From a virus: a stretch of 40,848 nucleotides of DNA. Positions 15,892-40,848 of this stretch are shown piece after piece; the first letter of the stretch is position 1; each line of letters opens with the position of its first letter. The position numbers and the translations under genes are program-made. Under the pieces are notes generated by a model. It did not search any database and had not been told where the DNA came from. It saw only the letters and a list, made by a program, of their open reading frames with translations. Where the stretch lies: IMG/VR virus record IMGVR_UViG_3300043609_000024, one strand, 5' to 3'.

Positions 15892-17757
15892 ATGTCATAT
15901 ACTTATCCGGAAGCTCTGACCGCGCTGGAAAGCGTCGCAAACGATTTTATCAAGGTGCTTCGCCCCCGTGAAATCGCCCGCGTGCTTTTGGTTTGCGATA
16001 GCGCCGCGCAAACGGCGTCCGTGACTTGGGACGCCTATAACATCAAGGTGAACATGCCCGTACGCCCTGCGGCGTCCCGCATGACGCAAGCCGAATTCGA
16101 AAACTGGGTTTCCTATTTGCTTCACGAGTTAGGCCATCCCGCGCATACCGATATGGTGGCGTGGCAGGCGGCATGCCGCGACGGCGTGGCCCGCATGGTC
16201 AACGCGCTGGAAGATGTCCGAATGGAAAAAGCCCTTATCGTTTCAGGCATTGTGCCGAACGCTAAAAGCGTCCTTTCCCGCCTCTTGTCCCGCAAGATTG
16301 TGGAAGCCCGTTCCAATGGCTGGAAACCGAACGCTCGCCGCGAATTCGGGTGGACCATTTGCGTTCTAGGGCGTGCGGCCAATGGTTATGCTTTCGACGG
16401 TTCCGATTTGGCTTGGATCGACGCGCAAATCAAAGCAGGCGGGACGGTTCACGCCGTTTTGGCTTGGGCCTTGCCGGATTTGGCCGCGTGCAAATCGACG
16501 GCCGATTGTACAGCCCTTGCAAAGCGTATCATGGCAGCCCTTGCGGCCCCTCAGGTTGACGGCCCCGGTGGTTTCCCCGGCGAGCAGGGCGAGCAGGGCG
16601 AGCAGGGCGAGCAGGGCGAGAGCGAGCAGGGCGAGAGCGAGAGCGGGGCGCAGCCCCGCGAGGGCGAGGGCGAGGAAGGCCCGCAGGAAGGGCAGGGAGA
16701 GGGCGAGGGCGAGGAAGGCGAGGAAGGCGAGGGCGAGCAGGACGAACGCACGGACGGCCCTCCTAGCGAGACTGAAAGCCCCTCCGGTGAAACCGGAGGT
16801 TCTGAGGGCGAGGAAGGGGGCAAAGGCGGCAAGGGGCAGGGAGATGGAACCTTTGACGCTGATGAAAAGCCCGTGAAAAACGACAAGGACCTGACCGAAC
16901 GGGAACTAGCCCCCGACGATAGCGCCGACGAAAACCTCACGGGCGCGGAAGCGGTCAACGAACGCGTGGTCATCAACATCCTGCGTAGCGGGATTATCGG
17001 CATGAAGCCCAAGGATCAAGGCCATTCGCGCAACGGCCCCAATGCCGAACGCCTCAAGAGCGCGGCAGCCCGTGCTTCCAAACAGCGCGCCCTTTTGGCG
17101 CGGGCTTTGAGGGCTAACGATACCGACGAACGGGAAGGCGGAAAACGCACGGGACGCTTGAACCGTAGCGCGCTGGCCCGCGTCGCCGCAGGTTCGTCAA
17201 CAATCTTTGAACGCCGTGACGTTTGCGAGGGTTTTGATACTGACGTTCACGTCCTGCTAGATGCATCCGGCAGTATGGGCGACGCGGGCAAGATGTCCGC
17301 AGCCCTTGAGGTGGGCTTGATCGTGACGCAAGCGGCAGCCAGCGTCGGGGCGTCCTGCACAACGGAGGTTTTCAATTCCATAGGTTACATCCGGGCCGGG
17401 GCCCTTGCAGGCAAGCGCACGCCTAATCCGGCGGATTTTGGGGTCCTTGTGAACCAAGCGGACGGCGGCACGCCCTTGAGCCCCCATATGGCGCGGGCTG
17501 CCGTGGCCCAAGCGGCACGGGCCCCCGGCAAGCGTCGGGTTCTGTTTTTGGTGACGGACGGGGGCTGCGACTACGGCCAAGAAACCGTCAAGCGAATGGC
17601 GCGGCATCTTGAGAAAACCTGCGGAACCGTGATCGCTCACGTTTCGATTTTCACGGCCCTGCGGGGCTCGTTCAAGGCAGAGGTTCGCGTGGCCCCGGGA
17701 CAAGCCATTGCCGACGTCGGGCTTGACCATTTCGTCCGGGTCCTGCAGGCCCTTTGA
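15892..17757 (+). CDS. cobT: CobT-like VWA-domain protein with an N-terminal HExxH motif and an acidic G/E/Q linker (621 aa)
   Basis: The C-terminal MIDAS motif is DVHVLLDASGSMGD (DxSxS at 17260-17274). The acidic repeat linker spans about aa 230-310. HELGH lies at aa 78-82. The gene is paired with the CobS-like ATPase. Confidence 0.75.
   Translation: MSYTYPEALTALESVANDFIKVLRPREIARVLLVCDSAAQTASVTWDAYNIKVNMPVRPAASRMTQAEFENWVSYLLHELGHPAHTDMVAWQAACRDGVARMVNALEDVRMEKALIVSGIVPNAKSVLSRLLSRKIVEARSNGWKPNARREFGWTICVLGRAANGYAFDGSDLAWIDAQIKAGGTVHAVLAWALPDLAACKSTADCTALAKRIMAALAAPQVDGPGGFPGEQGEQGEQGEQGESEQGESESGAQPREGEGEEGPQEGQGEGEGEEGEEGEGEQDERTDGPPSETESPSGETGGSEGEEGGKGGKGQGDGTFDADEKPVKNDKDLTERELAPDDSADENLTGAEAVNERVVINILRSGIIGMKPKDQGHSRNGPNAERLKSAAARASKQRALLARALRANDTDEREGGKRTGRLNRSALARVAAGSSTIFERRDVCEGFDTDVHVLLDASGSMGDAGKMSAALEVGLIVTQAAASVGASCTTEVFNSIGYIRAGALAGKRTPNPADFGVLVNQADGGTPLSPHMARAAVAQAARAPGKRRVLFLVTDGGCDYGQETVKRMARHLEKTCGTVIAHVSIFTALRGSFKAEVRVAPGQAIADVGLDHFVRVLQAL
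16579..16821 (+). repeat. Coding low-complexity/tandem region (GGCGAGCAG units, GEQ/GE repeats)
   Basis: GEQGEQGEQGEQGESEQGESESG...EGEGEEGPQEGQGEGEGEEGEEGEGEQDE. The 9-bp unit GGCGAGCAG is repeated 4 times at the start. Confidence 0.9.
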
Positions 17758-17795
17758 ACCGGGACCACAGCCCCGAAAGCCTCGCAAAGCGTATC

Positions 17796-17830
17796 AAGCC
17801 CCGGCCCCGCAAGGTGCCGGGGCTTTTGCT
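17796..17830 (+). terminator. Rho-independent terminator after the CobT-like gene
   Basis: AAGCCCCGGC-N10-GCCGGGGCTT forms a 10-bp perfect stem, running into TTTTGCT. It begins 39 nt after the stop codon. Confidence 0.7.
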
Positions 17831-17953
17831 TGCCCTCCAGAAGCCCTTGGGAAGGCCCGTAGGGAGTTTATTTTGGGCCCCCGCTAGGGAGATGGCCCCC
17901 GGGGCCCTAAACGCACCCCCGGGCTTCCTAGGGCCTTGGAAGCCCTATCAATT

Positions 17954-17969
17954 GTAATGGTACCATTAC
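17954..17969. promoter_or_regulatory. Perfect 16-bp palindrome GTAATGGTACCATTAC (candidate dimeric protein-binding site)
   Basis: Read directly from the sequence. It is AT-rich in a GC-rich context and centred on GGTACC. Confidence 0.5.
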
Positions 17970-18005
17970 GTTTTGGGGCTCGCGACGCGGGCGTGCGCGT
18001 GACGG

Positions 18006-18145
18006 GCGCGGGCCCGCAGGCGCGCAGGCGCGCGGGCGCGCGGGCGCAGGCGCGCGGGCGCAGGCGCGCGGGCGCGCGGGCCCGCAGGCGCGCAGGCGCG
18101 CAGGCGCGCAGGCGCGCGGGCGCGCGGGCGCGCGGGCGCGCGGGC
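18006..18145. repeat. GC-rich tandem array of 18 units (16 octamers GCGC[G/A]GGC or CCGCAGGC, plus 2 hexamers GCAGGC)
   Basis: Hand parsing covers exactly 140 bp. The 8-bp period is incompatible with coding. It lies between convergent operons. Confidence 0.9.
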
Positions 18146-18165
18146 GCGCACGGGGGAAAATCCCT

Positions 18166-18209
18166 TTAAGGATCGACCGGGTTTTCTATTAAGGATCGAC
18201 CGGGTTTTC
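18166..18209. repeat. Perfect 21-bp direct repeat TTAAGGATCGACCGGGTTTTC, two copies at a 23-bp period
   Basis: Copy 2 (18189-18209) is the stop codon plus the last 6 codons of the HTH gene. Copy 1 (18166-18186) lies just downstream of that gene. Confidence 0.9.
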
Positions 18210-18467
18210 CATTACGAGGCCGCCCAGTTCTTCGAGCGGCGCAGTCGCCAGATAATACTCTTTGCGCAGGTGATCCGGCACCGGCCCGTCGAGCCCGTGC
18301 TTCTCGAAGAACGCCATCGAACGCTCACGCCGTCTCTTGGACAGCATCTTGCTGGTCACGGCCCTGACAAGCTGGCGCGAAACACCAAAGTGCCTTCCGA
18401 CCTCGGTGGCACTGAACAGTTTGCTTTCGTACATCTCGGCGACCATTCCGGCAGTCCTATGATCCAT
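18189..18467 (-). CDS. Small HTH DNA-binding protein (92 aa)
   Basis: ATG at 18467 is preceded by GGGGGAGG with a 6-nt spacer. The HTH-like segment is FSATEVGRHFGVSRQLVRAV, followed by the basic stretch KRRRER. Confidence 0.65.
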   Translation of the reverse strand: MDHRTAGMVAEMYESKLFSATEVGRHFGVSRQLVRAVTSKMLSKRRRERSMAFFEKHGLDGPVPDHLRKEYYLATAPLEELGGLVMENPVDP

Positions 18468-18512
18468 TGTAAACCTCCCCCTCGCGTCCACTCCAGCAGC
18501 AGCCCAAATCGG

Positions 18513-18631
18513 GAATGATGTACATGGTGTACACGAAAACCATTCCCGCCATAAGAATGATGTGGTCCTATAATGAGACTAGATTTTTCTTACGCGCGTA
18601 ATGGTTTTCATGTACACCATGTACATCATTC
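18513..18631. repeat. 32-bp inverted repeat (one mismatch) flanking a 55-nt AT-rich spacer
   Basis: GAATGATGTACATGGTGTACACGAAAACCATT (18513-18544) pairs with the reverse complement of 18600-18631. The only difference is 18534 C against 18610 A. Confidence 0.9.
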
Positions 18632-18635
18632 GCCA

Positions 18636-20909
18636 TCAGAATACCTTTTTGGGTTTGGTTTTCAACGCAACACCCTCGATGTACTTTCCATGCCTATCCC
18701 GATCCACCACATACCCGCCCTCTCGGAGTTTGGTCCCCAACTCCTGCGACGTGTGAGGGCCCGTCGCATGGCTCTTGTTGTCTTCCCGAAAAGCCTCCCA
18801 CGTCTTGAAAGCCTCACCAACGTAGACCCTGTCCTTCACCGCCACGCGGCCCCCAACGTCCATAATAAACTCCTTCCGCCACCGCCCAAAAACGTCGGCA
18901 TTGTCGAGATACTCCTCGGTTGCGTCATGGATCGCCCGGCATGCCGGAAGGCCCCCCGCCGCCCAGCCGACCCAGCCGTCCACCATCCACCGCAATATCT
19001 CAGCCTTCTCCCCTCGCAGCTTGTCCACTAGCCCCACATCGACCGCTTTGGGCCGAAACAGCGCGGGTACCAGCCGCATGCGACGTCGAACGCCATCATC
19101 GACCGTATCCAGACGAGGCTTCTCGTTGCCCGCCATGACGATCTTGAACTGCGGCACAAACGTCGTCGGGTCCTGCCGCATGCGGTTTGCCGTAATGGCC
19201 CCACCGCCCGACGCCTGCTTGACCAGCCCCATGTCCCAAGTCGCACCAACAGCCACGTCAGGAACCGTAACCAGACGAGCCCCCTCAAGCACCGCCAGAG
19301 GAGCCAGATGCTTGCCGCCCTTGCTGTCCATGAATACCCGGTGATCCGCCCGCTCATGATAGTCCCCCATCACCTCGCCGATCATGTCCAAAAACACGCT
19401 CTTGCCGTTGCCGCCGGGCCCATAGACAAAGACAACCACATGCTCGCTTGTATGGCCCGACAGGCAATAACCGCAGAACACCTGCCACCAGCGGCGAAGC
19501 TCCGGGTCCTTCTGCGTGAAGTCGTCCAAAAACTTCTCCCAGTATTTTCCCTTTGCGCCTGCCGGTGCGATCTTCGTGGAAGTGCTCCTCGTCACGAAGT
19601 CCTTCGGGGCCCCGGGCCTTCCCGTCACGCCCAGCCCCATCGCGTCCATCTCCAGAACAAAACCCGGCAGCCCCAGAAGATCACGGTTGGCGTCGAACGC
19701 GTCTCGTTCGAGACAGAGCGACGGCCGCAGCCGTACCAGCGAAGCCACAGCATGATGCCAGCCCGCCTTGAGCAGTTGCGCCGTCATCTTCGGGTCCGTC
19801 CCCAGCAGATGCCGACTGATGCTCTCCCGCACCGCCTCGTGAAGCGCCGCCTCGTTCGTCGAGATCACCCAGCGCAGCATCACGGGATCGAACATGGCCC
19901 ATGACCCCGCAGCCCCGTTGATCCACCCCAGACGTCCCCTCTCCGCCCGGGACACGTCGGCAGACATCGACCAGTGCGTGGGATGGGTGGGAAGAGCCCC
20001 AGCCACCGGCGCTGCCGGTGGAGGCGGCGGCGGCGGCGGATCATCGTCGAACACCAGAGATGCAAAACCCTGCGGGTTCGAGCCCTCGGCCCGGGCCCTG
20101 AGACGCCCACCCTTCGACCGCAGCCCGCCGGTCCCAAGGCTATCCCATACCCGCCGCGTCTCCTCGGCGTCGTAGCTCGCATGTCCCGCCGACCACTCGT
20201 CGAACACCACCAGCCCGTCGGCATCGTTCTCGCAAAGCGCCTTGAGCCCGTGGGCCACTTCGATCCACTCGCCCCTGTCGTCGAGATCGTTGGGTATAAG
20301 AGCCATCAGGGCCCGCAGCTTTTTGATATCCATGTCCCCGCCGCCGACGCTCCCTGCCGTGCTTGACCGCGCCACCTGCACCGGATCGACGGTCGCAGGG
20401 TCCATCGCGAGCCCCTGTATCGCCTCGGCCAGCCGCACCTTAAAACCGCCCCGGCCTTTCTTGGTGTTCACGCCCATCGGAAGCCGGAACAGATGCACCG
20501 CGTCGCGACCCTCCAGCTTGGTGCCCACGAGAAACTCCACCGAAGCGAAGAACCGCGCCCAGTCCGCCACCGGGACCGCAGGGTCCAGCCGGTAGACCCA
20601 TTGGTAGTTGCCTGCCGACGTTTCGACGACAGCCGTCGGGGCTCCGATGGCCCCCAGCACGGCGGGCCCTTTGACCTTCGTGCCGACGTCGTCGATCACT
20701 AGGGCTCGAACTTCCAAGGCTTTATCGGTGGTGCGCGAGAGGTGTCCTCGATCAAAAGCCGCCACGCTCCAGTAGCAATCGCGCGTGCCGTCCAGAGCAG
20801 TATAATCGCGCGTAGCTGCAGGCGGATGAAGGTTGGCGAAAATAGCGTGTTCCGCATGGTCAGGAAAAACCGCTTGGAGGAACCGCGAGGCCTCTGTATG
20901 GTTAGCCAT
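18636..20909 (-). CDS. Bifunctional primase-polymerase / D5-P4-type helicase (757 aa)
   Basis: The N-terminal prim-pol motifs are LVIDDVG and VVETSAGNYQWVYRL. A PriCT-like segment reads EWIEVAHGLKAL...FDEWS. A poly-Pro linker follows. The helicase Walker A is VYGPGGNGKS. AAGGA lies 8 nt before the ATG. Confidence 0.85.
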   Translation of the reverse strand: MANHTEASRFLQAVFPDHAEHAIFANLHPPAATRDYTALDGTRDCYWSVAAFDRGHLSRTTDKALEVRALVIDDVGTKVKGPAVLGAIGAPTAVVETSAGNYQWVYRLDPAVPVADWARFFASVEFLVGTKLEGRDAVHLFRLPMGVNTKKGRGGFKVRLAEAIQGLAMDPATVDPVQVARSSTAGSVGGGDMDIKKLRALMALIPNDLDDRGEWIEVAHGLKALCENDADGLVVFDEWSAGHASYDAEETRRVWDSLGTGGLRSKGGRLRARAEGSNPQGFASLVFDDDPPPPPPPPAAPVAGALPTHPTHWSMSADVSRAERGRLGWINGAAGSWAMFDPVMLRWVISTNEAALHEAVRESISRHLLGTDPKMTAQLLKAGWHHAVASLVRLRPSLCLERDAFDANRDLLGLPGFVLEMDAMGLGVTGRPGAPKDFVTRSTSTKIAPAGAKGKYWEKFLDDFTQKDPELRRWWQVFCGYCLSGHTSEHVVVFVYGPGGNGKSVFLDMIGEVMGDYHERADHRVFMDSKGGKHLAPLAVLEGARLVTVPDVAVGATWDMGLVKQASGGGAITANRMRQDPTTFVPQFKIVMAGNEKPRLDTVDDGVRRRMRLVPALFRPKAVDVGLVDKLRGEKAEILRWMVDGWVGWAAGGLPACRAIHDATEEYLDNADVFGRWRKEFIMDVGGRVAVKDRVYVGEAFKTWEAFREDNKSHATGPHTSQELGTKLREGGYVVDRDRHGKYIEGVALKTKPKKVF

Positions 20910-21043: not shown

Positions 21044-23020
21044 TCAGGGTCCTTTTGCAATCGCCATATATGACGCCGCAATACCGTAGCGACGCATGAT
21101 CTTGTGTTCGCCCGCCAGCGGCAACCCGCCCGCCCAAGGCGGCGCTTCCAGCATCAAGGCGTTCATTAGGGACGAGACTGCCGCCAGCGACGAGCCTGTT
21201 GGTAGCGGGTAGACCAGTTCGTCGTGGACCGTCATGCACGGCACCAGCGCGTGCCGCCGGTAGCCGCGAAGCATCGCCTCCGACATGATGTCCCGCGCCG
21301 CCGCTTGAGTGGCGTTCTCGGCCAGCTTGCCGCCCCATGTACGTTGCTCGACCCACCGGCCGCCGACCTCGGCACCCCAGTACACGATGCTGCCGCTGAC
21401 CGCGTCGAGACGAGGCTTGTGATAGTAGAGAACTCGCCCCGACGGCAATCGCATTTGAAGCGTCTTGGGCGTGCAGACGAACGCGACGCCAGAGCCCCCG
21501 ACGGCATAGACCGTCCCCCGCCGGAAGATGGCTTGCCGCGCCGCATGATCTATCTCGGACCAGAAGCTGACGATGTGGTGGTTGGCCTGCCGCCAGACAT
21601 TCTTGAACTTCTCGGCTTCCCCCGACGTGAGCCGCACGCCGTAGCTCTTCAGGGCGGTTTCCCGCAGCTTGGTCGCGCCCATGCCGAAGCCCAGCGCCAG
21701 CACCAATACCTTCCCCAGTTGCCGGTCCTTCGAGCCGAACTGCGCCGCCGCCCAGACGTAGACGTCGTCGCCTGCCGCGAACACCGCGAGAATGTCCTGC
21801 TGCCCCGCGAGCCACGCGAGGACACGGGCCTCGATCTGCGAGAAGTCGAACGACCAAAGAAGTTTCTGATCGTCGGTCGCCTTCAGGCAGGACCGCAGCG
21901 ACCACGAGACGCAATCCAGTATCGGTGCCGACGTGATCGCGTTTAACGCGCCGACGGCGCGCGGCGACGTGGCGGCCCGGGCCATGTCGCAAAACAAATC
22001 CGGATCGAAGCCCTTGGGGATGCGCGGCAGGTTCTGGACTTGCACGCCCCGCCCCGACCAGCGGCCGGTTCGACCGGCCCCGCAAAACTGGAACTGGCCC
22101 CGGAGCCCTCCGCCGTGGCCCGTCATCGCCGTCATGCGTTCCAGCTTGCGCGTCGAGGCCCGGGCCATCCGCAGCCTGATCTGAAGCACTTCGACCACGT
22201 TGTCCATCAGCCCCGGCGGTGCCGTCGCGAAGTTAAGCAGGGCTTCTTCGATGGTGGCCCGCGTCGTATCTACGAGGCTACAGCCCTTCGACGCCAGCCA
22301 CGCCAACAGCCTTGCCGTCTGCGTCCCCGGAGAGGTAACTGCGCCAGCAGTCAGGACCGCGCAGCGTGCCGCATCCTCCTTCTCGGCGGCCTCGGCGGCC
22401 AGCTTCAAATCCAGCACCCGGTGCAAATCCGTCCCCAGTTCGCCGGACGTATTCATGAGAGCGTCGAGCCTCGAAAGCTCGTCTTCGTCAGGCTGCAATT
22501 CGGGGATCGCGTCCGACAGCGCCGCCTCGGCTTCGACGTCTTTTTCGCAGTAGATTGTCAGCGCGTCGTAGTCTCCTATGGTCCACGGCCCATCGCCCGG
22601 TTTCTGTGGCCGCGACATGCGGAGCATCAACCGGTGGCCCGCCATGTCCTTCTGCGAAGCCAACCCTAACGCTGCCGCCGCCTGTTCAAGCCTGCCGGGA
22701 AGCCCATAGGCCAAGGCCCTTTGCATGGTGCATTTGATGGGTATGGCGACGAACACCCCCAGCCGCTCCAGCACGGCCGTCTCGAACGCGGCGTTGAAGG
22801 CGTGGCCCTGCACGTCCACGTTCTGCAGGGCCTGCAGGAAAGAGGGCGGCAGGCGGTTGCCGACAATGGCGGACTTGCCCGGCTGGCTGTCCATCTTCCA
22901 CGCCACGCACATCACGCGAAAGGACGGGTCCGCGACGTAGCGGTGGACGCCGACTTTCTTCAGGTCCAGATCGCAGTAGGTCTCGAAGTCGAAATGCAAA
23001 TCATGTGTGGGGCGCGGCAT
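21044..23020 (-). CDS. Family A DNA polymerase with 3'-5' exonuclease domain (658 aa)
   Basis: Exo I is DFETYCD. Motif A is FDFSQIEARVLA, motif B is RQLGKVLVLALGFGMG and motif C is VHDELV. GGAG lies 7 nt before the ATG. Confidence 0.9.
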   Translation of the reverse strand: MPRPTHDLHFDFETYCDLDLKKVGVHRYVADPSFRVMCVAWKMDSQPGKSAIVGNRLPPSFLQALQNVDVQGHAFNAAFETAVLERLGVFVAIPIKCTMQRALAYGLPGRLEQAAAALGLASQKDMAGHRLMLRMSRPQKPGDGPWTIGDYDALTIYCEKDVEAEAALSDAIPELQPDEDELSRLDALMNTSGELGTDLHRVLDLKLAAEAAEKEDAARCAVLTAGAVTSPGTQTARLLAWLASKGCSLVDTTRATIEEALLNFATAPPGLMDNVVEVLQIRLRMARASTRKLERMTAMTGHGGGLRGQFQFCGAGRTGRWSGRGVQVQNLPRIPKGFDPDLFCDMARAATSPRAVGALNAITSAPILDCVSWSLRSCLKATDDQKLLWSFDFSQIEARVLAWLAGQQDILAVFAAGDDVYVWAAAQFGSKDRQLGKVLVLALGFGMGATKLRETALKSYGVRLTSGEAEKFKNVWRQANHHIVSFWSEIDHAARQAIFRRGTVYAVGGSGVAFVCTPKTLQMRLPSGRVLYYHKPRLDAVSGSIVYWGAEVGGRWVEQRTWGGKLAENATQAAARDIMSEAMLRGYRRHALVPCMTVHDELVYPLPTGSSLAAVSSLMNALMLEAPPWAGGLPLAGEHKIMRRYGIAASYMAIAKGP

Positions 23021-28669: not shown

Positions 28670-29031
28670 TGTCGAACATTCCCGAAAGGCCCCACCCGGG
28701 TGAACTGCTCTCCCTCGCGTTCGAGGTTATCAACGCGAGGGGAAGCGACTACGACAACGTCAGCGATATCGAGCAAAACTTCAGGGAGGCTGCCGCCGTG
28801 GCGTCTGTTGTTATCGGAAAGCCCTTGACCCCGCGCGACGTCGCGATGGTCTTGGCCGTCGTCAAACTGATACGGTCCAAAAGCAGCCCGGAGAAGATCG
28901 ACAACTACGTTGACGGAATGAACTATCTGGCGTTCGCGGCTTGTTTCCAAGGGCTCGTGCCGATGCCGCCTCTCGGGGCCCGGGCCCCGGTCAAGCAGAC
29001 GGTGGTCCCGCTCAAGGAAGTCGCCGAATGA
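28669..29031 (+). CDS. DUF6378-like conserved phage protein (120 aa)
   Basis: The pattern RGSDYDN...F...A......G..LTPRDVAMVLAVVKLIRSK......D...DGMNYLAFAA matches my recollection of that family. TGATG coupling to the upstream gene. Confidence 0.6.
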   Translation: MSNIPERPHPGELLSLAFEVINARGSDYDNVSDIEQNFREAAAVASVVIGKPLTPRDVAMVLAVVKLIRSKSSPEKIDNYVDGMNYLAFAACFQGLVPMPPLGARAPVKQTVVPLKEVAE

Positions 29032-31080: not shown

Positions 31081-31338
31081 CTAGGGCCCTCTTCGGTTGC
31101 CGGTGCAGCGCGCCATATCGAGGCTGTTGCGGGCGGTCTGCTTGCATTGCATCTCGGCGTTGATCGCGTCCACTTCGGCGCGGCGGTAAACGTCGGGGTC
31201 GTAGAGTTCGAGCCCCAGCCGTTGCTGGGCGCAGCCGCTCAGAAACACCACGATGATGATCATGACGGCGATCACTGCAATCGTCAGCACCGGACGTTGC
31301 CGGGCCCTGCGAAAGAAGCGGTCGCCAAGCTGGGTCAT
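31081..31338 (-). CDS. Small lipoprotein (85 aa precursor)
   Basis: The precursor has a basic n-region (RFFRRARQR), a hydrophobic core ([16 protein letters not shown]) and a lipobox (LSGC). ATGA overlap with the upstream fibre gene. Confidence 0.7.
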
Positions 31339-33236
31339 TTTGGCTCCACCTCGAAGTAGCCTTCCAGTTCACGGACCCGGGCCCTGAGGGCTTTAAGCTC
31401 CTGCAGGATCACCGGCACATACTTCGAGTAGTCCACGCCCCAGAACTCGGGCCCGGCCTCGCTCTCTTCGTTATGGACGATGGCTGCCGGGTAGACCTCG
31501 ACGGCCTGCTGCGCGATCACGCCATAGGAGCGTTCCTTGGTGGACCGCCACGCGAAATCGTAGACGTTGGTCTGTTCGATGATGTTGCCCGCGTCGAAGC
31601 TGCGCAGGTCTTCCTTCAGTTCGGCGCTGGAGGCGGTGGCGTAGGTCACGGCGGTCGGGGACTGGGTAATCTGGCCCACGGAGCCGTTGGACGTGTTTAC
31701 GAACGCTATCGCGGTGGTGGTATCCGCAGCGGGCCTGAAGCCCATGCCGTACTGAATAGCACCACCAGCGAAGGTGATGTGAGCAGCAGCGTTGTATGGA
31801 TCGAGGCCGCTGATGCCGACGTTCAGGCCGGGAACACTAACAAAACCGCCGAGGAAATTGAACTTGCCGACCTCGTAGGAGAGGTAATTGCTGCCCGCGC
31901 TGCCGAAGCGGTAGACGCCGTCGGTGGTGCTGCCGCCCATCCACTGCTTGATGCCGTCGGCAGCGATAGTGGCGTGTGCCACTCCTGCAAAGGTGCGGAA
32001 GTTCGTCGCGGTGGCGGCGTCGATGTAGTTGTTGCCGGTGCCGTTGTTATCGATGATGAGACTGCCATACGATCCGGTCACAGCGAGCGGTGTGACCCCC
32101 GCAGGCACGGTGATGGAGGCACCGCCCGTCATGATCACGGCACCTCCGGAGAACTGGAAGTTGGTACCGTTATAAGTCAAGTACTTGGTGCCGGTGTTAC
32201 CGAAGTAGTAGCTGCCGGTAGTCGGTGCCCCAGTCACTGTGCTGACGAAATTGGCGGTCGAGATGATGCCGGGAGCGTAGAGCGCACCTCCGCCAAACTG
32301 AAAGTTGGTGCCGTCAAAAGACAGGTACTTGGTGCCGGTATTGCCGAAGTAGTAACTGCCGGTGGTCGGTGTCGCGGTCACTGAGCTTATGAAATTGCCG
32401 GTCGAGATGATGCCGGGCGCGGTCAGCGTCCCGGTCATGGTGTCGCCAGCCTTCGCCACCCGCGAGGTGTCGCTGGGGTGGCGGTGGTCGCCGCGTGCGT
32501 AGAGTAGCGCCGTTCCCGGCGCGGCGGTGCCATCCATCAGCGGCGCGGCATCGCTGGGCACTTGTGGATCGCCCTTGACGCCCTGCACGCCCTGAATGCC
32601 CTGCGGCCCCTGCGAGCCGGTTGCGCCGGTATCGCCCTTGACGCCCTGCAAGCCCTGCGGCCCCTGCGCGCCGGTCGCCCCCGTCGCGCCGGGCGTACCC
32701 GCCGCACCCGTATCGCCCTTGACGCCTTGAGGGCCCGGCAAGCCGGGATCGCCTTGCGCGCCGGTTGCACCCGTTGCACCCGTTGCGCCGGGCGTGCCTT
32801 GGAGACCCTGCACACCGGGGTCGCCTTTCGGGCCTTGAGCACCGGTTGCGCCCGTGGCACCGGCAGGGCCCGTTGCGCCCGTGTCGCCCTTCGGGCCTTG
32901 CGCGCCCGTGGCTCCCGTGGGTCCCGGCGGCCCTTGGATGGGACCGGCGTTGATCCACGCCGAGGTATCGGCATCCCATACCCAGAGATCACCAGTCGCG
33001 GTGACGACGTAGGCGTCACCCTCGACGTTGCCTGTCGGCGGCAGCGAGCCGACGTTTGGCACCTGACCTTTGAGGTTGATGCCGGTGCCAGCCGACCCCT
33101 GCGGCCCGGCCGGACCCACCGGCCCCTGCACCCCGGTTGACCCTGTCGGCCCGGCAGGACCTGTCGGGCCCGGCGGCCCGGCGAGAGCGAGGTCCTGCCA
33201 GCCTTCGGAGGTGCGAACGCGAACGGCGTAGTTCAT
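31335..33236 (-). CDS. Collagen-like tail fibre with C-terminal intramolecular chaperone (Peptidase_S74) domain (633 aa)
   Basis: Long G-X-Y runs. An internal ~47-aa duplication ([46 protein letters not shown], two copies). The C-terminus [12 protein letters not shown]...[13 protein letters not shown]...[19 protein letters not shown] is typical of the S74 chaperone. The ATG at 33236 overlaps the upstream stop (ATGA). Confidence 0.85.
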
Positions 33237-33640
33237 GTCAATGCCACCTGTTTCGTGACGCCGTTGATGCGAATAAACAGGCCAGCCTCCGTCATCCACA
33301 TCTCGCCATCGATTGGATCTACGGGAGTGGCGCGGGGAGCCATACGCAAGGCACCCGAGATGGTGAACGTGCCATCGTCGCCGAAAATGTGTGTCGCTAC
33401 GGTCGCGGCCGCATTGATCAGCGAAAGGCTTGGAGTTGCTCCGGGGTTCGTCCGCATGAACCGGGTGTAGCCCGCGATATTTTTCCAGAACACGCCGCCA
33501 TAGTCGCCCGACGATACCGACAGGTTACCCGTCATCTCGTCGCCGGTCGTATTGACGTAGCGGACGTCGGCATCGGCTTGGCTGATGCCGCCTCCGCCAC
33601 TGCCGCCCGCTGCACTGGGGGATAATTCGACATATGCCAT
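33233..33640 (-). CDS. Small tail-fibre-associated protein (135 aa)
   Basis: ORF within the fibre cluster. Gly-rich N-terminus and beta-rich body. Coupled to the downstream fibre gene. Confidence 0.55.
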
Positions 33641-33655
33641 TTCACATCGCTCCCA

Positions 33656-35230
33656 TCACAGGCTCGCAATCTGGTTCGCGCCTATAGCTGCCGTTATGGC
33701 CCCCGGCCAAATACAAAGTTCAGTAATCCATCCGGTAAACGGCTCGGGGACGGCACTCAGGCCAAAGAAAAGCTGGCCTCCAAAATCACCGCTGCCGACA
33801 TTCTGGTTAGGTGTGTCCGCGCCACTGGGCGACGCGACAGATGCAATGTTGATGTGGCTGGAAGCACCATTGTAGACGCATTGCGTGGCGTACCATGTGT
33901 TCATATTGGCGGTGCCAAATTGCAACGTACCGCCGCCCGCATGCAGATAGAACGTGGCCGTATTGCCGGTGTAGCCAAAACGCGGAATGAGCGAAGTGCC
34001 GCAGAATATTCCGTTCGGTACACCACCGGCTGTTTGCGCTGTCTGGCGAGAGACAACAGACGCGGTAAATGGCTGCGCAAAAGCAGGGAGGGCTATCTGT
34101 GGTCTCGTCGGGAGTGACCCGTCAAAGACAAGCGCCGCGCGTCCAGCAGTCAGTCCTGTCGGACTGATAATAATGCGAGGCAACTGACCATTAACGCCAT
34201 ACGTCATGTCGCTGCCTGTCGCCAGCTGATCATACCAGAGCTGTACGACTGCGGTGCCGTGCGCCGCGATCCACGCATTCAGCGCGGCGTAATCCAGCAG
34301 TCCGCTTGGAAGAATAAAGATGTCTGTCGCGAAGTTGAAGCTGTTGTCGCAAATCTTCATCGCCTTGGTCGTTCCGGTCATCTGCGCGGCGCTGTAGGCA
34401 CGCAAACCGTAGAAACAAATGGCTCCCGGCAGAATGTCGCCCGGCCCCTGATAGGCCGGGGCACCGGCAATCGGTCCCACCGCCGTTGATGTGGCGCTGG
34501 CACTGCCCGCGCCATTGGTGGCGGTGACTGTGACGGTAATCATCGCGGAAAGATCGGCAGTCACCAGCAGATATGTACCTGCCGTAGCGCCGCTGATGAC
34601 GGTGCCGCCGCGCTTCCACTGATAGGTGTAGGACGGCGATCCGCTCCACGTCCCGCTGCTGGCGGTCAGTGTCGAACCAACCTGCACCGTGCCGGAAATG
34701 CCGGGCAGCGCGGTATTGGCAGGTGGCGTCTCCGCATCCCAGCGGTACATCTTGTTGGTGTCTTTCGCGACGTAGATCGAGGCAACCACGCCCGTCGCCG
34801 GGAACGACGCGAGATTGGCGTATTCGAAAACTTCGGTAGCGCCGCCACTGCCGACCGATGGCGCAAGCTCGTCGGTGTCCACCCACAGCGCGCCGATCTC
34901 GACGCTGCCGGGGTCGTTCGGCTGCTCGTAGACCTCAACCTGCCCCTCGGGGCCGACGGGGCCGGTAGCGCCGGGAGCCCCGGTGGCACCCGTCGCACCC
35001 GTGGGGCCCGAGGGCCCGGGATTGCCCTGCACGCCCTGAACGCCTTGGGAACCGGTGTCGCCCTTGACGCCTTGGGCACCCGTTGCGCCGGTATCGCCTT
35101 TGACGCCTTGGACGCCTTGCGCGCCGGTATCGCCCTTCGGGCCCTGCGGCCCCGGCACGGAACTGGCGGCACCCGGGTCGCCTTTCGGCCCGGGAGGTCC
35201 CTTGATGTTGGTTTCAAGCCCCCAAGCCAT
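33656..35230 (-). CDS. Collagen-like tail fibre / receptor-binding candidate with an Ig-like repeat and a lectin-like C-terminus (524 aa)
   Basis: The N-terminal ~100 aa are G-X-Y repeats ([10 protein letters not shown]...). The Ig-like segment is [63 protein letters not shown]. Confidence 0.75.
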
Positions 35231-40045: not shown

Positions 40046-40848
40046 TCAGTACAACTTTCTGCTGTTCAGTCGTTGCAACGCCATAGCCAATTGCTGCCGC
40101 TGCGCCTCGGCTATCCGGGGATCGACGACAGGCTGAATACCCGGCGGCATCGGCAGGGACGCTGACGGAAGGTTGGCAGGGCCCGAGGCCCGGGCCGCGT
40201 TCTGGGCCACCGGGCCCTTGGCGAAGAGTTCGCCGAGGCCCGAAAATGCGTCTCCCGCGATCTCCTGCTTGGACTTCGTTTTATCGCCTGCCACTTCAGC
40301 CAATGCCCCCTTGTTCGGTTCGCCGCCGCCCGCCTCGGCGATGTTCGCTTGGGTTTCAGCGGCGGGGCTCGCAGGGCTCGCAGGGCTCGCGGTGTTCCCC
40401 TCCGGATCGTCCAAGGGGTTGGGCACGACGGTGGCGGCAGGTTGAACGACGCTCGCGGTGTCCGCACCGCCCTGCCCCATGCCGCGCAGGACGCGAGCAT
40501 TCCACATTTTGGCGAATTCGCCGCTGGTGAGGTTCTCGACGGAGCCGTAGCGGGCCTTATCCTTGTCAGGGACGTTGCCCCAGATCGCCAGCCGGGACCA
40601 ACCTTCGCCCTTGTTGCGGCCTTCACCCGTCGCGTGCATGGACTGCCACGCCGGACGATCCGGCTTGGTGATGTGTTCGTAGGAGCCGCCGACGCCCTGC
40701 TGGTGCACGAGGTAGATTTCGCCGGGCGTCAGTTCTCGCCCGAGCTTGTTCGCCACCTGATCGGCTTCATTTTGCAGCTTGAGCGCGGCGATGCGTTCGT
40801 TTTCCTTGCCGTTGAAAATGTCGCCTTTCCCACCCAGCCGTTTGAATT
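40046..40848 (-). CDS. C-terminal part of the transglycosylase-like virion protein (same gene as 1..317)
   Basis: No in-frame stop from 40848 down to the TGA at 40046-40048. The sequence ...TPGEIYLVHQQGVGG... continues the muramidase-like N-domain. The C-terminal half is A/P/G-rich. The ORF-track start at 40756 is an internal codon. Confidence 0.8.
   Translation of the reverse strand, partial: FKRLGGKGDIFNGKENERIAALKLQNEADQVANKLGRELTPGEIYLVHQQGVGGSYEHITKPDRPAWQSMHATGEGRNKGEGWSRLAIWGNVPDKDKARYGSVENLTSGEFAKMWNARVLRGMGQGGADTASVVQPAATVVPNPLDDPEGNTASPASPASPAAETQANIAEAGGGEPNKGALAEVAGDKTKSKQEIAGDAFSGLGELFAKGPVAQNAARASGPANLPSASLPMPPGIQPVVDPRIAEAQRQQLAMALQRLNSRKLY
40722..40848. repeat. Second copy of the 127-bp terminal overlap
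   Basis: Identical to bases 1-127. Confidence 0.95.

Follow-up and report, generated by a model that had tools for sequence, protein, structure and literature searches.

The origins of the staphylococcal pathogenicity islands (SaPIs) consist of 6-12 short iterons placed right after the rep open reading frame (ORF), with an AT-rich centre flanked by two or more iterons per side, the two sets running in opposite directions (PMC9371898). These iterons are penta- or hexanucleotides (5-6 nt) that are specific to each element and are read by the C-terminal winged-helix domain of a self-loading superfamily 3 (SF3) helicase (PMC9371898, citing Ubeda et al. 2007, 2012). The origin of plasmid pRN1 is described as a stem-loop with a 21-nt stem and a 58-nt loop downstream of orf904, which was experimentally required for replication; its structure is conserved and its sequence is not, and replication needs both the integrity of the stem and the loop (PMC4234260). 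The authors of that study report no iterons, and they noted a similar stem-loop 3ʹ of the replication gene of Bordetella phage BIP-1/BPP-1 (PMC4234260). Here, we describe a quasi-palindromic element in the viral genome IMGVR_UViG_3300043609_000024 of IMG/VR, which was analyzed as one stretch of 40,848 nt (hereafter the window). The element contains a 32-bp inverted repeat directly after the gene of a primase-helicase of 757 aa, and it is most likely the replication origin of this phage, a palindromic iteron site for the adjacent primase-helicase. An earlier note on the same DNA had presented the repeat chiefly as an RNase III substrate or attenuator and had named a DNA-level origin as the alternative; the layout of the locus and its relatives favor the latter.

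The locus resembles the SaPI origins in several respects. The neighboring protein carries an SF3 helicase fused to a primase, as in PriRep5 of SaPI5, and the element is located just downstream of the ORF of the proposed initiator, at a distance of 4 nt here and of 0-30 nt in relatives. Each arm carries two GRTGTACAY units in mirrored orientation (two to three per arm in relatives), the centre is AT-rich, with the lowest-GC 100 nt of the genome lying at the element, and the unit sequence is specific to each element. In contrast to the 5-6-nt iterons of SaPIs, the units here have a period of 9 bp with recognizable cores of 6-9 nt, and they form part of a long, nearly perfect palindrome that also contains a conserved inner repeat. 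Moreover, SaPIs are satellites, whereas the present genome is that of a 40.7-kb phage with its own family A DNA polymerase (PolA), helicase, exonuclease, and single-stranded DNA-binding protein (SSB), whose origin is predicted from sequence.

The likeness to pRN1 concerns both the protein and the DNA. In both, the replication protein combines a primase (a weak match here), a helical domain (PriCT_2 in BPP-1 and here), an SF3 helicase, and a C-terminal winged helix (weakly predicted here), and shared as well is a stem-loop of about 100 nt past the gene, with a 32-nt stem and a 55-nt loop here versus 21 and 58 nt in pRN1. As in pRN1, the structure is kept among relatives and the sequence is not. 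However, the arms here are themselves iterons, and pRN1 is an archaeal plasmid relying on host polymerases. The primase-helicase is 26% identical to Bbp29 of BPP-1 over 360 aa (E = 9e-21), and past the Bbp29 stop codon only a 9-bp inverted repeat was found, with no tandem 9-bp units.

In the satellite phage P4, the alpha protein unites a primase, a helicase, and a C-terminal winged-helix origin binder in one polypeptide and recognizes short repeated octamers; its primase is of the TOPRIM type, and ori and crr are separate repeat clusters. The window shares with P4 the placement of primase, helicase, and proposed C-terminal origin binder on one chain, and homologues of its primase-helicase bear the label 'P4 family phage/plasmid primase' at the Joint Genome Institute. 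The two differ in the primase, which is TOPRIM in P4 and probably an archaeo-eukaryotic primase (AEP), with PriCT_2, here, and P4 has no single palindrome abutting the stop codon.

An inverted repeat built of tandem 9-bp units

By direct reading and pattern search, the two 32-bp arms (GAATGATGTACATGGTGTACACGAAAACCATT and, as the reverse complement of the other, GAATGATGTACATGGTGTACATGAAAACCATT) are complementary at all positions but one, where C at 18534 is opposite A at 18610. This pair is C-A in a plus-sense RNA and G-U in a minus-sense RNA. Pairing extends imperfectly inwards beyond the arms (Table 1), and the quasi-palindrome amounts in total to about 125 bp (119-129 nt), with the 32-bp arms as its outer part. 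It is the largest inverted repeat of the window by a wide margin. Folding of the minus-sense RNA, a check suggested in the earlier note, gave a stable stem of -75.8 kcal/mol (z = -11.6), and the plus-sense RNA was nearly as stable at -70.7 kcal/mol (z = -10.9); none of 200 shuffled sequences was equally stable in either case. As single-stranded DNA, the element folds with -39 to -42 kcal/mol (z about -10 to -11). The inverted repeat is confirmed as real and far above chance.

Each arm carries TGTACA-N3-TGTACA, an arrangement that is confined to the two arms in the whole window (0.12 expected), and exact matches to GRTGTACAY occur only at the four arm sites. A third, partial copy is located in the 55-nt spacer together with TATAAT, and positions 18551-18650 are the lowest-GC 100 nt of the genome, with 36% GC compared to 63% overall. 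The arms with their single G-U-capable difference, the spacer length, the repeated TGTACA pairs, the partial copy, TATAAT, and the AT-rich spacer had all been described correctly in the earlier note. Its distances were right for the 45 nt between the stem and the ATG of the downstream ORF (18467) and one too large for the gap between the stem and the primase-helicase stop codon (18636-18638), which is 4 nt rather than 5 nt.

Table 1. Positions in the window of the proposed origin and of neighboring features (a point marks a feature without strand).
Feature	Position	Strand	Basis or content
Quasi-palindromic element, proposed origin	18508..18636	.	60-nt arms, 80% complementary, 9 nt between
Primase-proximal arm of 32-bp inverted repeat	18600..18631	.	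Direct reading, pattern search
Primase-distal arm of 32-bp inverted repeat	18513..18544	.	Direct reading, pattern search
Two tandem 9-bp iterons, GATGTACAT and GGTGTACAT	18610..18627	-	Exact GRTGTACAY; 9-bp periodicity in relatives
Two tandem 9-bp iterons, GATGTACAT and GGTGTACAC, mirror orientation	18517..18534	+	Exact GRTGTACAY; 9-bp periodicity
Inner arm motif GAAAACCATTAC	18598..18609	-	Sequence kept in close clade as ..ATTAC(C)G / CGGTAAT..
Inner arm motif, mirror copy GAAAACCATTCC	18535..18546	+	
Low-GC 55-nt spacer, proposed DNA-unwinding region	18545..18599	.	Holds GAATGATGT (third copy, 18555-18563), TATAAT (18569-18574, plus strand), most of palindrome TTACGCGCGTAA (18590-18601)
Primase-helicase, 757 aa	18636..20909	-	RepB/AEP-like primase (weak) + PriCT_2 + D5_N + SF3 helicase (DUF5906) + variable C-terminal ~85 aa; Pfam, PHROG
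Small downstream ORF, 92 aa	18189..18467	-	Sub-threshold HTH_28, E = 0.05; variable cargo, outside element
Two 23-bp direct repeats TTAAGGATCGACCGGGTTTTCYA, core GGTCGATCCTTA	18166..18211	.	Conserved flanking context
Tandem array, 8-bp unit GCGCAGGC, 18.6 copies, 92-95% GC	18006..18150	.	Conserved flanking context
PolA	21044-23020	-	
RuvC-like resolvase, helicase, exonuclease, gp2.5-like SSB	Divergent from 23.0 kb		
Plus-strand genes (MoxR-like ATPase and others)	Converge from left, end at 17803-17824 terminator	+	

Conservation of the layout and exchange of the units among relatives

Homologous primase-helicases were found in more than 25 loci by protein searches and contig scans of soil and rhizosphere metagenomes and IMG/VR. 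The downstream DNA was present in 20 relatives, with primases 32-69% identical. In all 20 relatives, an inverted repeat starts 0-30 nt past the primase stop codon and often overlaps it. The arm sequences are unrelated among the phages and the design is constant, with the outer part of each arm consisting of two to three tandem 9-bp units in every relative. Within an arm, identity was 76% at an offset of 9 compared to 20-30% at the other offsets from 4 to 14 (20 loci, both arms), and 717 of 814 arm positions were complementary across 21 loci despite the unrelated unit sequences. Units or cores of differing phages include TGTACA, TGACGCT, TGTAGAC, TGTAGAT, TGACGAG, GTAGGG, AAGTGGGCT, AAGTGACCC, GGTAAG, and GCGGGGCAA (Table 2), and all four to six copies are alike inside one genome. 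Such a pattern, different between phages and matching within each, points to a concerted change of putative binding sites, and a tandem periodicity of 9 bp, for which an RNA offers no rationale, is characteristic of iterons. Covariation was formally counted on the arms aligned with MAFFT, and the count was dropped, as gaps had been inserted to bring differing iterons into register.

To the inside of the units lies the inner repeat, the sequence of which is kept within clades as ..ATTACCG/CGGTAAT.. or as TTTTCGGTATTCTC/GAGAATACC. The centre is TA-rich, and the region between the iterons has a GC content of 32-56% in all 21 loci versus about 63% genome-wide. The central core GGTCCTATAATG (18565-18577, including TATAAT) is reversed relative to the primase gene in L003 and L004, while the flanking AAGAAAAA and ATTCTTATGG hold the same orientation in these loci and in the window, which looks like an inversion between the inner repeats.

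Table 2. The 9-bp unit of the arms and the content of the cargo slot between palindrome and direct repeats, by locus.
Locus	9-bp unit	Cargo slot
Window	GRTGTACAY	HTH-like 92-aa ORF
L002	ATGACGCTC	Empty
L003	GGTGTAGAC	Empty
L004	ATGTAGATG	191-aa ORF
L006	GGTGACGCT	Empty
L034, L037	GGTGACGCT	
L016	GGTGACGAG	232-aa ORF
L011		232-aa ORF
L012	GCGGGGCAA	
L013	AGTAGGGRG	82-132-aa ORF
L015	AGGTAAGAN	82-132-aa ORF
L017	AAGTGACCC	82-132-aa ORF
L038-40	AAGTGRGCT	
L014, L024		HTH-like 92-aa ORF
L009		Cys-rich 91-aa ORF
L046		Empty

A 14-mer scan of IMG/VR for the core of the direct repeats, in which the other matches were mostly single and due to chance, identified a further locus, L046, in which the helicase has been exchanged. 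PolA of this phage is 74% identical to that of the window and residues 1-297 of the primase are 68% identical, whereas its helicase is VapE-like, with an unrelated C-terminus, and its iterons are different (GTTACAGAG). Nucleotide homology between the two is lost at window position 20044 and is back at 18208, giving a swapped stretch of 18209-20043 in the window versus 2172-3662 in L046, with the recombination boundaries inside the primase gene (around residue 290) and at the direct repeats. Five of the seven other loci with a swapped helicase keep iterons past the stop codon, mirrored around an AT-rich spacer. On this comparison, the iterons are co-inherited with the helicase and its C-terminal module, and their joint replacement implies a pairing between protein and DNA.

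Regarding the proposed initiator itself, the SF3 helicase assignment was clear from Pfam, PHROG, and a family profile, and PriCT_2 was likewise clear, while the RepB_primase match (E = 3e-4, 21 bits) lay under the cut-off of 24.3. The family profile matched C962R of African swine fever virus (ASFV; 2e-10) and PriRep5 of SaPI5 (7OLA, 1e-5); the latter is among the few PDB sequence relatives of the protein, and the similarity is limited to the helicase core. The C-terminus evolves fast, its last ~85 residues being about 50% identical within the close clade compared to 90-96% for the helicase core, and between the window and L006 the corresponding values are 85% for the helicase and 31% for the C-terminus. 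The last 99 residues have a helix-helix-wing topology in an AlphaFold model (predicted local distance difference test score, 81). When this C-terminal model was used as a Foldseek query, the best match was to the C-terminal region of C962R, the D5-like primase of ASFV (E = 0.016), and the origin-binding domain of P4 alpha was absent from the top 50. The C-terminal domain is thus weakly predicted to be winged-helix-like.

We infer that the element is bound by protein, melted, and used as an origin, by analogy with SaPI Rep/PriRep and with ORF904 of pRN1. In this model, the iterons of both arms would be contacted by the winged-helix-like domain at the variable C-terminus of the SF3 helicase, and two hexamers would self-load in opposite orientations and melt the AT-rich centre, possibly helped by a hairpin or cruciform formed by the near-palindrome. 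The N-terminal primase would then prime synthesis for the phage PolA. There were no DnaA boxes near the element, which is expected for a self-loading helicase.

Weighing the proposed origin against other functions

Several observations weigh against this origin. In the Foldseek search, classical winged-helix proteins appeared only at E > 0.1, so that the winged-helix assignment is weak. L006 and L034 share the iteron GGTGACGCT, yet the last 75 alignment columns of their proteins are only 33% identical, and a comparison of the relatives gave no clean correspondence between C-terminus and iteron sequence; because the two are not cleanly matched, the C-terminal domain is only the presumed reader of the iterons. 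In many relatives, the centre reads TATA-(GCGC)n-TATA and is not uniformly AT-rich. Cumulative GC skew reaches its maximum at 18204, beside the element, and its minimum, which would mark an origin of the bacterial type, at 28716, with no simple match to gene orientation. As this extremum coincides with convergent transcription and has the sign opposite to that of a bacterial-type origin, it is uninformative and GC skew was dropped as evidence. No close DNA relative was found among deposited phages, and no cultured relative; the best cultured protein matches were 34.5% identical for the primase (partial) and 39.5% for PolA, and a scan of 185,579 bacterial and archaeal genomes gave no relatives. 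The sense RNA of the element was stabler than the antisense RNA in 15 of the 21 loci, by a mean of -4.3 kcal/mol (Wilcoxon p = 0.02, the loci being non-independent). Finally, the true origin, or a co-origin, could be formed by the neighboring conserved direct repeats and GC-rich arrays.

In a broader arrangement, which we regard as possible but rather unlikely, replication would be controlled by a composite region of about 0.5-0.9 kb, conserved in the family, of which the palindrome is a single module. The order of modules would be the specificity palindrome, the cargo-gene slot, the 23-bp direct repeats, and the structure-prone 8-bp GC-rich arrays. The palindrome would serve as the origin for the phage's own helicase, and a second, conserved factor would bind the invariant repeats and the GC arrays, or these would set the direction by blocking forks or transcription; initiator expression could in addition be subject to feedback from the hairpin in the primase mRNA. 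To our knowledge, no described phage origin matches this combination. The core GGTCGATCCTTA recurs two to five times at the same place in relatives with any type of iteron or helicase, and since it is constant across these types, its reader is presumably a conserved factor other than the helicase C-terminal domain.

An RNA function is unlikely. According to this explanation, the 32-bp stem acts in the minus-sense RNA, between the primase gene and the next gene, as an RNase III site, an mRNA 3ʹ-end stabilizer, or an attenuator. The stability of that RNA, the G-U pairing of the sole difference between the arms, and the advantage of the sense strand in most loci agree with it. The site is also probably transcribed, because the only canonical terminator at the convergence point, a bidirectional one, lies further on at 17803-17824. 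The complementarity of the stem survives complete turnover of the sequence among relatives, although such covariation alone is not decisive, as both an RNA stem and mirrored DNA binding sites predict that complementarity is kept. The mismatches between the arms were more informative. The 97 found across 21 loci comprise 57 that cannot pair in the RNA of either strand, 25 that are G-U in the sense RNA, and 15 that are sense C-A. The ratio of 25:15 shows no clear bias, and against this background the lone G-U of the window is unremarkable. In L014, L009/L011, and L039, pairing is lost at variable positions of the units while the unit cores are kept; broken pairing with intact DNA motifs is what the earlier note had named as refuting the RNA function. 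Nor does an RNA stem account for the 9-bp periodicity inside the arms, for a plus-sense RNA of nearly the same stability, or for the swapping of the iterons along with the helicase module. The element does not depend on the downstream gene, which is the helix-turn-helix (HTH)-like ORF in three loci and an unrelated gene or none in the others. A scan for terminators, with a short GC-rich stem and a U-tract, found none at 18500-18640; the stem of the window has no U-run behind it, and relatives are inconsistent in this respect; likewise, no Rfam family matched the element at the gathering score.

The RNase III sites of phage T7 offer a comparison; these hairpins are shorter and irregular, and what defines them is the RNA. 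Like them, the repeat is an intergenic hairpin within one transcription unit of a lytic-type phage. Unlike them, its arms are tandem DNA repeats, its mismatches are not biased towards wobble pairs, and the element changes in step with a DNA helicase module. Given the weak trend in sense stability and the probable transcription of the site, the RNA may have a secondary role, although nothing speaks specifically for RNase III processing. Any transcript that crosses the site will form the hairpin, which we regard as incidental to the proposed origin or, at best, as secondary in function.

It is improbable that the element is an operator or regulatory site for another DNA-binding protein, such as the HTH-like ORF product or another phage regulator, controlling the cargo gene or a promoter in the spacer. 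Symmetric repeated sites are typical of operators, TATAAT is present in the spacer, and in many relatives the distal arm is followed by a conserved CTGC(C/T)G motif, a ribosome-binding site, and a start codon. However, the element is kept with any downstream gene or with none (as in L002, L003, and L006), the HTH-like ORF is present in only three of the 21 loci, a promoter scan found no sigma-70-like site in the spacer, the core with TATAAT is reversed in L003/L004, and the element follows the helicase module rather than the flanks.

Least probable of all is a different kind of DNA site, such as pac/cos, a site of recombination or cruciform formation, a terminus or fork barrier of replication, or the target of a protelomerase. 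The near-palindrome is long and lies in a complex conserved non-coding region (direct repeats, GC-rich arrays) with convergent transcription and the GC-skew peak. However, the terminase genes are about 6 kb away, and the element's abutment to the helicase stop codon and its co-replacement with the helicase fit no such function. A protelomerase target was rejected because the dyad centre, unlike that of such targets, is non-palindromic and the element is internal in the circular assembly; no exhaustive scan of the genome for a protelomerase was made.

Surroundings of the element and implications for the phage family

The first 127 nt of the window are identical to positions 40722-40848, and this exact terminal overlap indicates a circularly closed assembly and a complete genome of 40,721 bp, which belongs to a tailed phage. 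No tRNAs were found. Large minus-strand ORFs at 31335-35230, which contain collagen-like triplet repeats as well as long tandem repeats with periods of 144 nt and 63-72 nt, are presumably tail fibres.

The small ORF that follows the element has a GGAGG ribosome-binding site, and its stop codon falls within the first 23-bp repeat. The ORF described in the earlier note as an HTH gene does exist, while that label rests on a sub-threshold match; its homologues were found only in L014 and L024. The content of this slot differs among relatives (Table 2). A CTGC(C/T)G motif (GGGCTGCTGCTGG in the window, around 18488-18500) is located 8-30 nt past the distal arm in nearly all relatives, and it is kept in those with a swapped helicase, with or without a following gene. 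The window has no mirror copy of it just beyond the primase-side arm. The motif might be a priming or start site or an element of a 5ʹ untranslated region.

The 23-bp direct repeats may be an accessory site. GC-rich arrays with other units (GCGCGCCC, GTGCGGGC, GGGCTTC, and GCGCGTGT) are present at the same position in L002, L003, L006, L009, L010, L012, L015, L020, L034, and L046, and the array of the window includes one G-quadruplex-type motif (18118-18156). On the far side of this array lies a perfect 16-bp palindrome, GTAATGGTACCATTAC (17954-17969), which is built of the inner-arm motif ACCATTAC; this motif occurs three times in the window versus 0.37 expected. Recurrence of arm motifs elsewhere is not general, as among the relatives only L012 has one extra copy of the inner motif. 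Between the GC array and the terminator, a strongly conserved non-coding block, CCCTAGCGGGGGCCCAAAATAAAC(T/C)CC...CGGGCCTTCCC in minus-strand reading (~17860-17905), is shared with L002, L003, L009, L034, and L046. The ORFs at 17754-17957 and 17936-18169 are probably spurious.

In our reading, the design of the proposed origin is already known from other mobile elements, and its new part is a stem built of iterons. It bridges two descriptions, that of the SaPI origin as iterons and that of the pRN1 origin as a stem-loop, since here the iterons make up the stem. The element provides a concrete, testable candidate origin for a family of ~40-kb phages from soil and rhizosphere, which is uncultured and without a characterized relative. 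The family also offers a natural series of at least 12 9-bp iteron specificities paired with related primase-helicases, the helicase cores of which are 85-94% identical, and swaps of the whole cassette, in which helicase, C-terminal domain, and putative origin change together, add to this series. The family would thus be useful for studying the recognition of origins by self-loading SF3 helicases and the evolution of origin specificity, and it is a possible source of mutually orthogonal replicons.

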